This document shows, piece after piece, positions 39,962-44,037 of a stretch of 64,000 nt of DNA (position 1 is the first letter of the stretch; each line of letters opens with the position of its first letter). Position numbers and translations under genes: made by a program. Origin of the DNA: Nannocystales bacterium (GTDB lineage Bacteria; Myxococcota_A; Polyangia; Nannocystales; Nannocystaceae); contig JBOEGF010000043.1 in the NCBI GenBank assembly GCA_050633305.1, forward strand, positions 64,001 through 128,000. Direction: 5' to 3'. A model generated the notes under the pieces. That model searched no databases. It was not told where the DNA came from and was given only the letters and a program-made list of their open reading frames with translations.

Positions 39962-41419
39962 CTATCGCTGTGCCGCGACCCGTCGGTAGTGTAGCGACCC
40001 GCCCCCGCGCTCGAGCACCAACATGGTCGATGCGGCTGTCGTGGTGATGTATGCGGTGGACTGAGGTCGGTCCTTGAAGAAGAACTTCCGGGGGGCGGTG
40101 GGGTGCATGCGCCTGCTCTGTCTGCCTTGGATGTGGAGGCGCAACCCCTCACCCTGCACGAATTCCGTGTCGACCACGCGTAGGGTCGAAAGGGTCTCCG
40201 CGTCGGCGGTGAGCTCGACGTGACGAAGGTCGCTGGGTGTCATCACCCACTGCCCGGCAAACGCGGCGAAGGGCTCGGGATCAAGTGGCACTGGCCGCGC
40301 TTCATCGCGCACGGGAACAGGAAACTCGTACGCCATCTGGGCGACGGCCTCGGCGATCTGGGAGCCGGGAGCGACCTCGGAGTTCGCCAGGTGAATCACG
40401 ACCAAGCCGTCGGAGGGGATGAGCAACACGCCGTGTTCGTGGCCGTCGAAGAGTCCCACCCAGCCGTACGCATCGCGTCCCGCGATGGTGGTGGGGGCGA
40501 ATCCGTATGGTTTGTCGAGGTCGTTGTTGCCGAACATGCGGCGACTAAGCTCGGCGCCGTAGGTCTCGTTGAGCAGGGCTGCGTACAGCTTGCCCAGGTC
40601 GGTCGCGGTCGAGGTCCAGCCTCCGGCGGCGCCCAAGGACGCGGGGGTGGCTTCAACGACCGGCTCGAGGTGTTCGTCCGGATGAAAGGACAGCCCGACG
40701 GATGCCCCCGGCTGTCGTCCGAACTTGGTGTGCTCCATGCCCAGAGGACCCAAGACCCGGGTCTGCACAACATCGGCATAGGGCTGCTCGGTGACCTCTT
40801 CGAGCAGCAGCCCGAGCAACGCCGCGTTGGACAAGCTCGGCGCGAAGTCGGTGCCCGGGTCGAACTCCAGGGGGTCGCCTGCGAAGGAGGTGACCAACGC
40901 CTTGTGGGTGGCCGCGCGTCGCTTGTAGACCCGCTCGAACAACATCGTCTCGGTGAAGTTGGGCAGCCCGCTGGTCATGGTCAGCAGGTGTTCCACCGTG
41001 ATGGATGGCTGCAGTCCCAGGTCCGGAATGTGGGTGGCCACCGCGTCGTCCAACGCGAGGTCTCCGCTGCGCACGAGGTCGAGCACCGCGACGTGGGTGA
41101 GGTGGACGGAGAGCGTGCCGATCTCGAAGGCGTCGTCCTCTCCGTGCGCGGTTTCTTGGGCGAGATCCCGAAGCCCCCAAGACTGCTGATACAGGGTCTC
41201 CCCCTCCGCGAACACGGCGGTGGTGCCATGGACCCGGAACGTCGGCCACTGCTTGCCCCATCCGGCGACGTAGGTGCTCAGCGATTGGGCGAAGTCGTCC
41301 GGCAAGGTGAAGGCCGCGGGTTCTTCGACGGGGGCTGCGGCGGGGGAGGGAGGGCGGGACTCTCCGGCGCACGCAGAGGCCGCGACGGCGAGGATGAGGA
41401 CGAGGGGGCGGGCGGACAT
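39962..41419 (-). CDS. Lipoprotein of the serine hydrolase/beta-lactamase family with degenerate catalytic motifs
   Basis: ITVEHLLTMTSGL, LEFDPGT and PLGMEHT motifs; SxxK appears as TLSV. Confidence 0.85.
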   Translation of the reverse strand: MSARPLVLILAVAASACAGESRPPSPAAAPVEEPAAFTLPDDFAQSLSTYVAGWGKQWPTFRVHGTTAVFAEGETLYQQSWGLRDLAQETAHGEDDAFEIGTLSVHLTHVAVLDLVRSGDLALDDAVATHIPDLGLQPSITVEHLLTMTSGLPNFTETMLFERVYKRRAATHKALVTSFAGDPLEFDPGTDFAPSLSNAALLGLLLEEVTEQPYADVVQTRVLGPLGMEHTKFGRQPGASVGLSFHPDEHLEPVVEATPASLGAAGGWTSTATDLGKLYAALLNETYGAELSRRMFGNNDLDKPYGFAPTTIAGRDAYGWVGLFDGHEHGVLLIPSDGLVVIHLANSEVAPGSQIAEAVAQMAYEFPVPVRDEARPVPLDPEPFAAFAGQWVMTPSDLRHVELTADAETLSTLRVVDTEFVQGEGLRLHIQGRQSRRMHPTAPRKFFFKDRPQSTAYITTTAASTMLVLERGGGSLHYRRVAAQR

Positions 41420-41752
41420 CGGCATCGCTACGCACCGGGCGGAGGCGGAAACGTTCCCGGCTCCTACATCGACACACCGGGAGGTTCGAAGGTTCGATGC
41501 CGACAGCGGCGCGACGCACGAAGCGCCAAGGACGGGCTCGAACCTGCAGATCGGGCTCGCCGGAATGGGGGCAGACCACGGTTTGGCGGACGTTTTCAGG
41601 CTCGCCAACTCGTCGCTGGAGGAAGCTGTCCGGAAAACGAAACGCATCGAGCCTGCCGGCGTTGTTCGAGTACCCTCGTGCTCCGGTTCGTGAACGCCGC
41701 TTCGAAGTTGGCCGGGGTGTCGGTCCCCTATGACGTGGAACTCCCCGAAATC

Positions 41753-42457
41753 ATGAACAGTCCGCCCCTCTTCTCACTCTTCTGTGCCGCTGTCGCGGTG
41801 GCATCGGCATGCGCTCCTGCGCCGCAAATGCCCGCCGAGGCGCCTTCACCGTCGGCCACTGCGTCGGGGACACCATCCCAGCCGGCCGGTGATCCCGACG
41901 CCCCTCGCTACAAGCCCAGCTCGTCGAGCGCGAACGCGGTGGACATCACGACGAACGCTTATGGGGCGTATGGTGCCGCTCCCGATGCGCCCGAGATCGG
42001 CGATCGCGTCGAGGACTTCACACTCCCGCTCGCCGACGGCGGGACGTTCGACCTGGCACAGGCACGCTCAGCTGGCCCGGTGTTGGTGATGTTCTATCGG
42101 GGCTTTTGGTGACCCGCTTGCAACACGCAGCTCGGCGAGCTGCAAAGTTCCATGTCGGAGTTCGACGCCCGAGGCGTCACGGTCGTCGCGTTGAGCGTCG
42201 ATGCTCCCGAGGTTTCGCTTCCGTGGGTCGAGAAAAAAGGGTTCACATTTCCGGTCGCCTGCGACTCCAAGCTGGAGGTCATCCGCGCGTGGGGCCTGGA
42301 GAACACGGACGTTGGCGACCTGTCGCTGCACGCGGTGGTTCTGCTCGACCCTGACGGGACCGTCTTCTATCGAAAGATCGCGCGGCGGCGCGCCTACCCG
42401 CCCGAGTTCCTCGACGCGATCGACTATCGACAACAGAAACTCGCGGCGCCCGGGTAG
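41753..42457 (+). CDS. Selenocysteine-containing peroxiredoxin-like (AhpC/TSA/redoxin) lipoprotein
   Basis: IGDRVEDFTLP...MFYRGFW-TGA(42110-42112)-PACNTQL continues in frame to VVALSVD...FPVACD...WG; SECIS-like hairpin follows. Confidence 0.88.
42113..42147 (+). promoter_or_regulatory. Bacterial SECIS-like element
   Basis: Perfect stem gcagctc-ggc-gagctgc (42127-42143), with a G-first loop about 21 nt after the UGA. Confidence 0.75.
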
Positions 42458-42510
42458 CGGTTCGCGAGTTGGGGTTGGCGGCGGGAGCTCTAGACCCCCG
42501 CTGCCGCCTG

Positions 42511-43557
42511 TCATGTCCGCAGGTCGCCGAACTCGCGGGGGGTCGCCTGCGCGCGCGCGGCCCCAGGCGAGAGGCCGAAGACCCGCTTGAATGCCCGACA
42601 GAACGCCGCCTCGGAGCCGTATCCGAACCGCGTCGCGACGCAGGCCAGGGGCTCCGTTGTTGTCTGCAGGTGCGTACGTGCGAGATTGAGCCGCCACGCG
42701 GTCAGGTAGCGCATGGGGGACTCGTCGAGCAGCTCGGTGAAGCGAGCCGAGAACGCCGAGCGTGACATGCCGGCCTGCGCGGCCAAGCCGGCGACGCTCC
42801 AGTCCTCCTGTGGGTCGCGGTGGATTGCAGCGAGTGCTCGCCCGATCTGCGGGTCACGCAATGCCGCCAACCACCCTCGATCGGCATCCGGAGAGGTCGC
42901 GAGCCACCTGCGGATCGCCTGGATGACGAGGACATCTGCGAGGCGGGTCACGACGGTTTCTCCGCCGGGGCGCATGGTTTTGGCCTCGCGGGTGATCAGC
43001 TGCAGGGTGCTGTGCAGCCAGGCTCCCGACTCGTCGTCCCAACCATCGACGGAGAGCACGGGCGGCAGGAGGTCGACGAGTCGATGCGCCGCGACGTGGT
43101 CGAAGCGGACCACGCCGTACGTCGCTTCGGTCACAGCACCGCCGCCACCCCAACGCAGCGTTTCATAGCGGTCGGTGATCGCTTGCACGGGCAGTTCGGA
43201 CAGCTCGACCGTGCGCGCGCGTCGGTCGCTGCGCAGGCGATGGGGGGTGCCGTGGGGGATGAGGGTGAGGCTCCCCGGACCCAGTTCCGCGGGCTCGACC
43301 CCGGCCATCTCGAGCCAGCATCCGCCCGCGGTGAGAATGACAAAGGTCATCATCCCCGGGAACGCCGGGATCGCGATGCCCCAGGGTGCGGAGAGTTCCG
43401 AGCGGCAGTACAAGGTGCCCGTCATCCGCAGCTGATGCAGGGTCTCGCCGAGCGGATCGGACCGATGGGGCGGTGGAGTGCGCGATCGAGACACGGAGAC
43501 GCCTGCAGCGTCGCAGAGGACAGGCTCGTCGTCCAACGGATTGGACGATGGGTACAT
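42511..43557 (-). CDS. AraC-family regulator with a cupin domain
   Basis: DPLGETL, PWG, LRDPQIGRAL, MSRSAFSARF and GYGSEAAF.RAFKR motifs; start uncertain. Confidence 0.92.
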   Translation of the reverse strand: MYPSSNPLDDEPVLCDAAGVSVSRSRTPPPHRSDPLGETLHQLRMTGTLYCRSELSAPWGIAIPAFPGMMTFVILTAGGCWLEMAGVEPAELGPGSLTLIPHGTPHRLRSDRRARTVELSELPVQAITDRYETLRWGGGGAVTEATYGVVRFDHVAAHRLVDLLPPVLSVDGWDDESGAWLHSTLQLITREAKTMRPGGETVVTRLADVLVIQAIRRWLATSPDADRGWLAALRDPQIGRALAAIHRDPQEDWSVAGLAAQAGMSRSAFSARFTELLDESPMRYLTAWRLNLARTHLQTTTEPLACVATRFGYGSEAAFCRAFKRVFGLSPGAARAQATPREFGDLRT

Positions 43558-43614: not shown

Positions 43615-44037
43615 ATGAACGGGTCCAAGATACTGACCATCATTCTCCTCGGCTCTGGGATTCTCGGTACGTGTGTTGGAGCCGGCTTGCTCCTGGTACC
43701 GGAGATGTTCCATGCGAGCAGTGGTATCGAGATCGGCGGGAACGTCAGTCTGCTCAGCGAGACCAGGGCGCCCGGCGGCGCCTTGTTGGCCATCGGGGCA
43801 CTCATCACCGCGGGGGCTTTCGTGCGTCATCTTCGTTTCACCGCCACGGTCTTGGCGACTGTGGTGTATCTGTCCTACGGCCTTGGCCGGGTGTTGAGCA
43901 TGTTGGTGGACGGACTGCCTTCGAGCATCCTCGTGCAGGCGGCCATCCTCGAGCTGGTCATCGGTGGGGTTTGCCTGGCTGCACTCCTGCGCTACCGACC
44001 CGGGCCCACGGGACATCACTCGACGGCCAAGGGATAG
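43615..44037 (+). CDS. DUF4345-like membrane protein
   Basis: LLSETRAPGG and GRVLSMLVDGLP motifs; 4 TM. Confidence 0.8.
   Translation: MNGSKILTIILLGSGILGTCVGAGLLLVPEMFHASSGIEIGGNVSLLSETRAPGGALLAIGALITAGAFVRHLRFTATVLATVVYLSYGLGRVLSMLVDGLPSSILVQAAILELVIGGVCLAALLRYRPGPTGHHSTAKG

Follow-up and report, generated by a model that had tools for sequence, protein, structure and literature searches.

Is the TGA that interrupts this locus the end of a broken gene or a codon for selenocysteine (Sec) within an intact one, and what would the uninterrupted protein do? The locus lies in the 64,000-nucleotide stretch of DNA analyzed here (the window), on contig C43 of an 11.0-Mb, 66% GC genome. Translation runs from ATG 41753 to TAG 42457 with the TGA at codon 120 of 234 as the sole internal stop, and the motif across it reads FYRGFW-U-PAC-NTQL. 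One of the two listed open reading frames ends at 42112 and the other starts at 42152, with 13 sense codons in between, which bears out the initial annotation in taking this TGA as the only break between two same-frame pieces. That annotation read the TGA as Sec in a lipid-anchored, peroxiredoxin (Prx)-like protein, a reading supported by TGA conservation, hairpin covariation, and the presence of the Sec machinery. Its warning about misannotation was also apt: the gene is deposited as a 140-aa piece (P0002) ending in FYRGFW, and 61 relatives exist only as post-TGA fragments. Our analysis indicates that the TGA is almost certainly decoded as Sec and that the apparently broken gene is one intact frame (Table 1).

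Table 1. Features of the selenoprotein gene and its predicted product
Feature	Position	Strand	Basis or remark
Whole CDS, 234 aa with Sec at 120	41753..42457	+	PF00578, 102 bits vs cut-off of 26
Predicted lipoprotein signal peptide, lipobox A-S-A-C, Cys20 at 41810-41812	41753..41812	+	Sequence, conservation
Pro/Ala/Ser-rich flexible tether, residues 21-50	41813..41902	+	Poorly conserved; pLDDT 48-71
Conserved N-terminal extension, predicted to be structured, residues 51-80	41903..41992	+	Invariant Y70-G71; pLDDT 85-89
TGA, inferred Sec120	42110..42112	+	Column of the first Cys of CxxC and of the Thr/Ser of Prx PxxxT/SxxC (alignment to BCP/AhpE)
Cys123, predicted resolving cysteine, second chalcogen residue of U-P-A-C	42119..42121	+	Invariant, 37/37
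Bacterial SECIS, GCAGCTC-GGC-GAGCTGC, 7-bp stem, GGC loop	42127..42143	+	Fits consensus constraints; covariation
His193	42329..42331	+	Column of thioredoxin cis-Pro and peroxiredoxin catalytic Arg; gap-free H/P/R column
Basic loop K208-I-A-R-R-R213	42374..42391	+	Three residues shorter than in sister Prx-like proteins

Conservation of the TGA and selection around it

A clear ortholog was found in 17 of 60 genomes (the genome itself and 59 relatives), namely every one of the 7 genomes of the genus plus 10 others in the family, and in each of the 17 the TGA stands at the same alignment column. Contig scans, with the best 80 matches of each considered, added at least 19 loci from genomes and at least 17 from metagenomes, giving at least 38 distinct orthologous loci once 15 exact duplicates were removed. 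TGA is kept in all 38 distinct loci among the matches listed, two of which (L142 and L145) look like assembly oddities. The closest named orthologs are Nannocystaceae or Myxococcota records. The frame remains open for at least 100 codons past the TGA in 37 of the 38 listed loci, and U-P-A-C is invariant (37/37). Over codons +1 to +4 past the TGA, 36 loci show 41 synonymous and no replacement differences; since these codons lie ahead of the next start codon, the stretch is translated.

The homolog alignment proposed with the initial annotation, which was to show Cys or TGA in this column, yielded both. Besides the 38 listed TGA loci, a profile search of 1.84 billion representatives retrieved one full-length Cys ortholog, P0051 (45% identical), and Cys occupies the Sec column in 116 more distant Cys loci. 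P0051 carries the lipobox, the N-terminal extension, and the His, and differs in having Leu at the R116 position and G-G-R-R in the basic loop. Its existence led us to reject the idea of a Sec-only clade. Second TGA-containing matches in two genomes (G032:C11:97852-98412 and G005:C249:2-265; 43% and 60% identity) are possibly paralogs within the clade. A degenerate member in genome G019 (L038:1453-2100, minus strand) lacks Sec, Cys123, and His and retains the lipobox, YG, Y-R-K-x-G-G-R-R, and a Cys-rich tail.

A conserved and covarying SECIS

The hairpin that the initial annotation proposed as a SECIS has its loop beginning 22 nt after the TGA. It fits the consensus constraints quoted for bacterial elements in PMC13188914: a loop of 3-9 nt (here 3 nt), a stem of 4-16 bp (7 bp), G in the first two loop positions (GGC), a spacing of 16-37 nt (21 nt), and an MFE of -7.5 or lower (-10.1 kcal/mol for the 17-mer). 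Stability as evidence on its own was rejected: the 71-nt region is unremarkable (z = 0.21), and 69 of the 1207 TGA sites that look coding in this genome (66% GC) have a G-loop stem of at least 7 bp. The hairpin is considered real because it is conserved and covarying.

The initial annotation allowed that close homologs might never keep TGA and hairpin together; in fact, the five core pairs, which RNAalifold recovers, are intact in 35 of the 38 listed orthologs and 7 of 10 other TGA paralogs vs 6 of 116 Cys homologs, a difference that also holds against 36 GC-matched Cys loci. Across the 38 listed orthologous loci one pair covaries (C-G in 22, A-U in 10, G-C in 3, mismatched in 3) and couples an L/I/V change to an E/D change. 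Its covariation (0.171 vs 0.058 shuffled) was not reached in any of 500 shuffles and exceeds all slid controls, the counts being inflated by relatedness of the sequences. At this locus, an Rfam search returned nothing near a gathering score and promoter and terminator scans found none; the hairpin 3' of the terminal stop has z = 0.13.

Selenium machinery and other TGA genes of the host

The four genes whose presence the initial annotation suggested checking were all found above cut-off: selA (397 bits vs 268), selB, the tRNA-Sec gene selC (67 bits vs a gathering score of 47), and selD, itself with an in-frame TGA. The selenoprotein gene and selA tend to occur together. selA is present in 16 of the 17 gene-carrying genomes, the exception being 77% complete. 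Within the family, the gene occurs in 16 of 25 selA-positive vs 1 of 11 selA-negative genomes (Fisher p 0.003, with kin that are not independent and gene absence judged from best scores). The best match is a Cys paralog in three selA-negative genomes; the counter-cases are one selA-negative genome (71% complete) with a TGA paralog and one selA-positive genome with a Cys best match.

A genome scan with family checks revealed other genes in which a G-loop hairpin begins 17-22 nt after a TGA; they encode FdhA, GPx, DsbA-like, AhpD-like, and SelL-related proteins, together with three ResA-like and two more Prx-like proteins. The selenoproteome of this genome (G000) comprises at least a dozen genes. 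FdhA, GPx, the DsbA-like lipoprotein, AhpD-like, SelL-related, the two additional Prx-like UxxC proteins, and SelD are at sites C23:30170, C24:25172, C32:274059, C12:126089, C10:198930, C5:271923, C20:61257, and C4:133193-134122. The open frame of SelD, at 627 aa, is twice the model length and therefore possibly a fusion. ResA/TlpA-like U-x-x-C domains end three long frames (G000:C5:196987; C5:195152, L214; C18:115685, L215), two of them in tandem after a choice-of-anchor D domain, an unusual selenoprotein architecture. A short frame at G000:C18:610106 (L216:157-429), with C-G-U, a G-loop hairpin, and no NCBIfam match, is a possible further selenoprotein or a chance match. In genome G043, the Prx-like paralog L035 carries U-P-F-U (two TGA three codons apart) behind a membrane-spanning N-terminus.

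These data bear on the competing reading of the TGA as a real stop (in a pseudogene or between two genes), as a sequencing error, or as a Trp or Cys codon. The sole public DNA run found, with 40% of the sequence words, yields contigs that span 42115-42471 and not the TGA, no RNA run with window sequence was found among the public runs listed, and the hairpin taken alone is at chance level. A stop or an error is opposed by the identical TGA in all 38 listed loci, down to approximately 40% identity, and by purifying selection on the codons that separate the TGA from the start codon after it. Homologs show Cys in this column, never Trp, and reassignment is contradicted by a terminal stop that is also TGA in 17 of 38 orthologs and by the only TCA-anticodon tRNA found, which scores as tRNA-Sec. 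Conservation, selection, the Cys column, and tRNA-Sec effectively refute this reading, which we regard as scarcely tenable.

Predicted export, tether, and N-terminal extension

The lipobox claimed in the initial annotation (ASAC, residues 17-20) follows a hydrophobic h-region and is backed by alignment of Cys20 in 16 of 17 orthologs and by a lipobox pattern in 30 of the 38 listed loci, where L139 is doubtful and the misses include truncated contigs and Gammaproteobacteria-type members. The n-region here is M-N-S-P-P, with no Lys or Arg, and same-genus orthologs have a basic residue. Pattern and conservation predict that the protein is very probably a lipoprotein, and the genome has four Lgt genes. 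The proposed Pro/Ser tether holds for residues 21-50, modeled with low confidence, and not for the conserved, well-modeled residues 51-80. The latter are absent from sister Prx-like proteins and present in Gammaproteobacteria-type members and P0051. At the other end, a C-C-x-x-x-C...C tail replaces the usual C-terminus in 8 of the 38 listed members (L021-L026, L064, and L141). The view of exported selenoenzymes as uncommon was overstated, given a second exported Sec-containing Prx-like lipoprotein in the genome (L040) and the NCBIfam family NF041057.

A peroxiredoxin-like fold with a replaced active site

The PF00578 domain scores 102.4 bits, and no NCBIfam model reaches its cut-off, the best being ResA (53.9 bits vs 170). 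The predicted structure, with Cys modeled in place of Sec, has a pLDDT of 84.7 and superposes on AhpE with Z 21.6 and an rmsd of 1.6 A over 151 aligned residues (AhpE/BcpB together, Z 21.5-21.6 and rmsd 1.6-1.7 A). The label "peroxiredoxin-like" thus stands for the AhpC/TSA fold but not for the active site. The Prx motif PxxxT/SxxC (or TxxU) and the catalytic Arg that precedes the penultimate core strand are absent: the site's Pro, Thr, and Arg correspond to Arg116, Sec120, and His193. Because all three are replaced, the protein is not regarded as a true peroxiredoxin. Two other family signatures were also lacking, i.e., the conserved cis-proline that faces the CxxC in TlpA/ResA/DsbE, whose column holds His, and the CxxxC of Sco/SenC, in place of which the motif is UxxC. 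Su et al. reportedly described in 2007 that Sco has His in place of the cis-Pro; in hhalign alignments the Sco His and His193 superpose only with a 2-residue gap.

The signature of His193 and the basic loop is the distinctive part of the protein. In alignments, the Arg of 2cx3, of 2ywn, of AhpE, and of the BCP encoded in this genome falls in the column of His193, and that column is His in 36 of 36 tree rows, 61 of 61 fragments, and P0051. In the basic loop the last two Arg occur in all 61 fragments, and the first varies (R/S/G/L). According to PMC2757866, the cis-Pro is likely to bind polypeptide substrates and may keep metals from binding, and peroxiredoxins have Arg in its place. Among 80 readable Cys homologs, 49 keep this Pro and 31 have A, T, S, or G. 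This weakens the notion that Pro loss is special in itself, and since such loss is common in the wider family, it is no sufficient ground for excluding protein substrates.

A His-variant clade spanning two lineages

The window protein is a member of the known Prx-like thiol:disulfide oxidoreductase family (PF00578, UxxC), within which the His variants form an apparently undescribed clade that spans Nannocystaceae and a Gammaproteobacteria-type branch. In a quickly built tree whose 89 rows were 36 of the 38 orthologs, 9 of the 10 other TGA paralogs, 40 of the 116 Cys homologs, and 4 further sequences, with P0051 left out, a branch with an SH-aLRT of 80 separates the orthologs and one degenerate copy from the rest. 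Invariant His193, a basic K-x-x-x-R-R loop, and the structured N-terminal extension are the signature of the clade. Readable sister sequences have Pro in the His column, as do 8 of 8 readable UxxC paralogs. A sample of 200 genomes from the phylum yielded no member of the clade outside the family, and the three borderline matches have Pro.

The second branch, two database fragments of which bear the names Gammaproteobacteria/Pseudomonadota, shows TGA and hairpin in four loci (L139, L140, L143, and L144) and includes the database proteins P0009-P0048. Its members mostly lack the lipobox, mostly have an ordinary signal peptide, and have been called from a GTG five codons past the TGA. They add a helical C-terminal domain of approximately 170 residues without a Pfam or NCBIfam match. 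The model of this extension (pLDDT 91.7, with the tail modeled together with adjoining sequence) returned only generic helical-hairpin matches, the best to a designed protein (Z 10.0, rmsd 1.5, 63 aligned), with no Foldseek match under E 0.001 and no atlas match.

Sec members of the clade appear in public protein sets only as fragments: 61 of 196 retrieved database proteins carry the signature, and all 61 are post-TGA pieces without the active site. Since no NCBIfam model covers the clade either, correcting the annotation would be of value. Among the retrieved proteins, P0050 (1430 aa) has five stretches matching the Prx-like profile, and several other matches have three or four.

Gene neighborhood

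No operon is conserved family-wide over 30 loci and the window, and synteny is confined to the genus (neighbors were clustered by BLAST, and the window's own genes were scanned against Pfam). In the window, a cupin-AraC regulator (42514-43557, minus strand) and a divergent DUF4345 gene (43615-44034, plus strand) lie between the selenoprotein gene and an M43 peptidase, a slot that holds different genes, or none, in congeners. On the other side, a divergent serine hydrolase gene of the beta-lactamase family (39962-41647, minus strand), which includes a lipobox-like stretch, is syntenic only within the genus and at one metagenome locus.

Proposed function and its alternatives

The reading we prefer, with middling confidence, is that of a Prx-like enzyme, lipid-anchored and facing the envelope, whose U-P-A-C site likely reduces small oxidants (e.g., organic or lipid peroxides). 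Sec would be inserted SelB-dependently at the TGA via the SECIS, and export and lipidation by the Sec/SPII route would give an envelope-anchored protein. As thioredoxin-fold chemistry suggests, the exposed Sec120 would attack the substrate and Cys123 would resolve the product as a selenenylsulfide. Re-reduction may fall to a DsbD-type protein, directly or via a TlpA-like carrier, one DsbD-type gene being present in the genome. Judging by position, His193 could serve as a hydrogen-bond or acid-base partner replacing Pro/Arg, and R116, K208, R212, and R213 could attract an anionic substrate. Cycling between Sec and Cys is a prediction that we consider probable; that the substrate is a small molecule rather than a protein is favored with less assurance, the cis-Pro to which polypeptide binding is ascribed being lost. 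Such a substrate would most likely be a small oxidant, probably an anion. A precedent is human PRXL2B/PGFS, which is Prx-like with a CxxC motif and reduces an endoperoxide; its Arg40 lies four residues before Cys44 (PMC12938796), the spacing of R116 and U120 in the window protein. Counting against the preferred reading, no conserved operon indicates a substrate or partner, and P0051 has Leu at the R116 position and G-G-R-R in the loop.

The same Sec lipoprotein might instead be a TlpA/ResA-like enzyme that reduces or isomerizes the disulfides of a specific envelope protein, in which case the N-terminal extension and basic loop would recognize an acidic client; we consider this possible but rather unlikely. 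A lipid anchor with a tether is typical of the TlpA/ResA-like class. This feature and the DsbD-type gene agree with such a role, as do the ResA model as best NCBIfam match, far under its cut-off, ResA structures among the matches, and the literature name "thiol:disulfide oxidoreductase." It is the His in the cis-Pro column that argues otherwise, along with BCP/AhpE, which beat ResA by sequence (82 vs 61 bits) and top the structural list, and the lack of any ccm/cox or other client gene conserved nearby. Those same top matches, to BCP/PrxQ and AhpE, and a Cys123 at the peroxidatic position would suit a true peroxiredoxin of the BCP/PrxQ type. That option is very improbable, with Arg116, Sec120, and His193 at the Pro, Thr, and catalytic Arg positions, all Prx models far under cut-off, and known Sec-peroxiredoxins having TxxU, not UxxC.

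Another option is that Sec120, Cys123, and His193 together bind a soft metal such as Cu(I) or Hg, the Prx fold having been adapted in a Sco-like way to deliver, sense, or detoxify metal in the envelope. We find this doubtful. Sco binds copper through two Cys and a His (PMC5668878); the His here is invariant across Myxococcota, Gammaproteobacteria-type members, and the Cys ortholog, and the Cys-rich C-terminal tail occurs in 8 of the 38 listed members. Yet Sco has CxxxC rather than the xxC spacing, its His is two residues more distant from the strand, two ordinary Sco genes are present elsewhere in the genome, and no copper, oxidase, or mercury genes were recognized as conserved neighbors (BLAST clusters; Pfam for the window genes). 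Extended to the whole clade, nearly Sec-obligate, exported, and present in marine and soil Nannocystaceae and Gammaproteobacteria, the Sec-Cys-His triad would define an independently evolved "seleno-Sco" for copper or mercury, a conjecture of similarly low probability; such a clade would escape annotation, since each of its Sec members is truncated at the UGA.

Relation to known systems

As a hidden selenoprotein, the window protein is routine, since its family is long known and lipoprotein forms recur. Tables of selenoproteomes have included Prx-like selenoproteins from 2007 at the latest (PMC1976440), and the "Prx-like thiol:disulfide oxidoreductase" (PF00578, UxxC/UxxU; WP_010940744.1) is listed as "predicted with high confidence" (PMC13188914 Table 1; PMC9312934). 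No description of the His clade was found in the literature searched; supplements and BSepDB may list its genes as "Prx-like," and BSepDB, which collects such genes by tblastn, may hold clade members (PMC13326102). The interest lies in a natural experiment: thioredoxins and peroxiredoxins are told apart by the residue in the cis-Pro/Arg column, and this clade pairs an invariant His there with Sec. P0051 is a natural Cys ortholog for easy expression. This pairing and P0051 therefore make the function of bacterial Prx-like selenoproteins testable in one well-defined clade.

The protein shares with other Prx-like thiol:disulfide oxidoreductase selenoproteins PF00578, UxxC, a Sec-UGA with downstream SECIS, Cys homologs, and the lack of an established function. 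The other UxxC paralogs compared here are without the His, the 30-residue extension, and the shorter basic loop of the clade, in which 38 listed Sec loci face one Cys protein. PRX_like2 (CDD cd02970) is described in PMC3514251 as having a CxxC-type motif whose second Cys matches the peroxidatic one, the other two Prx catalytic residues being missing. PRX_like2 (by description), PRXL2B/PGFS, and SelL resemble the window protein in this motif and in an Arg four residues before the first Cys/Sec. The window protein differs from them in having Sec first, predicted export with a lipid anchor, and His for Pro; it scores 51 against the cut-off of 120 for the SelL-related model NF040769. The exported selenoproteins SaoB, SaoC, and SaoX of the SAO system (bioRxiv 10.1101/2022.07.06.499078) and the NF041057 thioredoxin-like (seleno)lipoproteins likewise combine Sec with a signal peptide or a lipoprotein signal peptide but belong to different families (15.8 vs a cut-off of 190 for NF041057). 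BCP/PrxQ and AhpE (PDB 2cx3, 5epf, and 1xxu) offer the closest solved fold (Z 21.4-21.6, rmsd 1.5-1.7 A, approximately 150 residues, 22-24% identity), with Arg, Sec, and His here in place of their active-site Pro, Thr, and Arg. Sco/SenC (PF02630) is alike in its Prx-related fold, membrane tether, and two chalcogen residues with a conserved His before the same strand, but has CxxxC where this clade has UxxC and a His offset by two residues.
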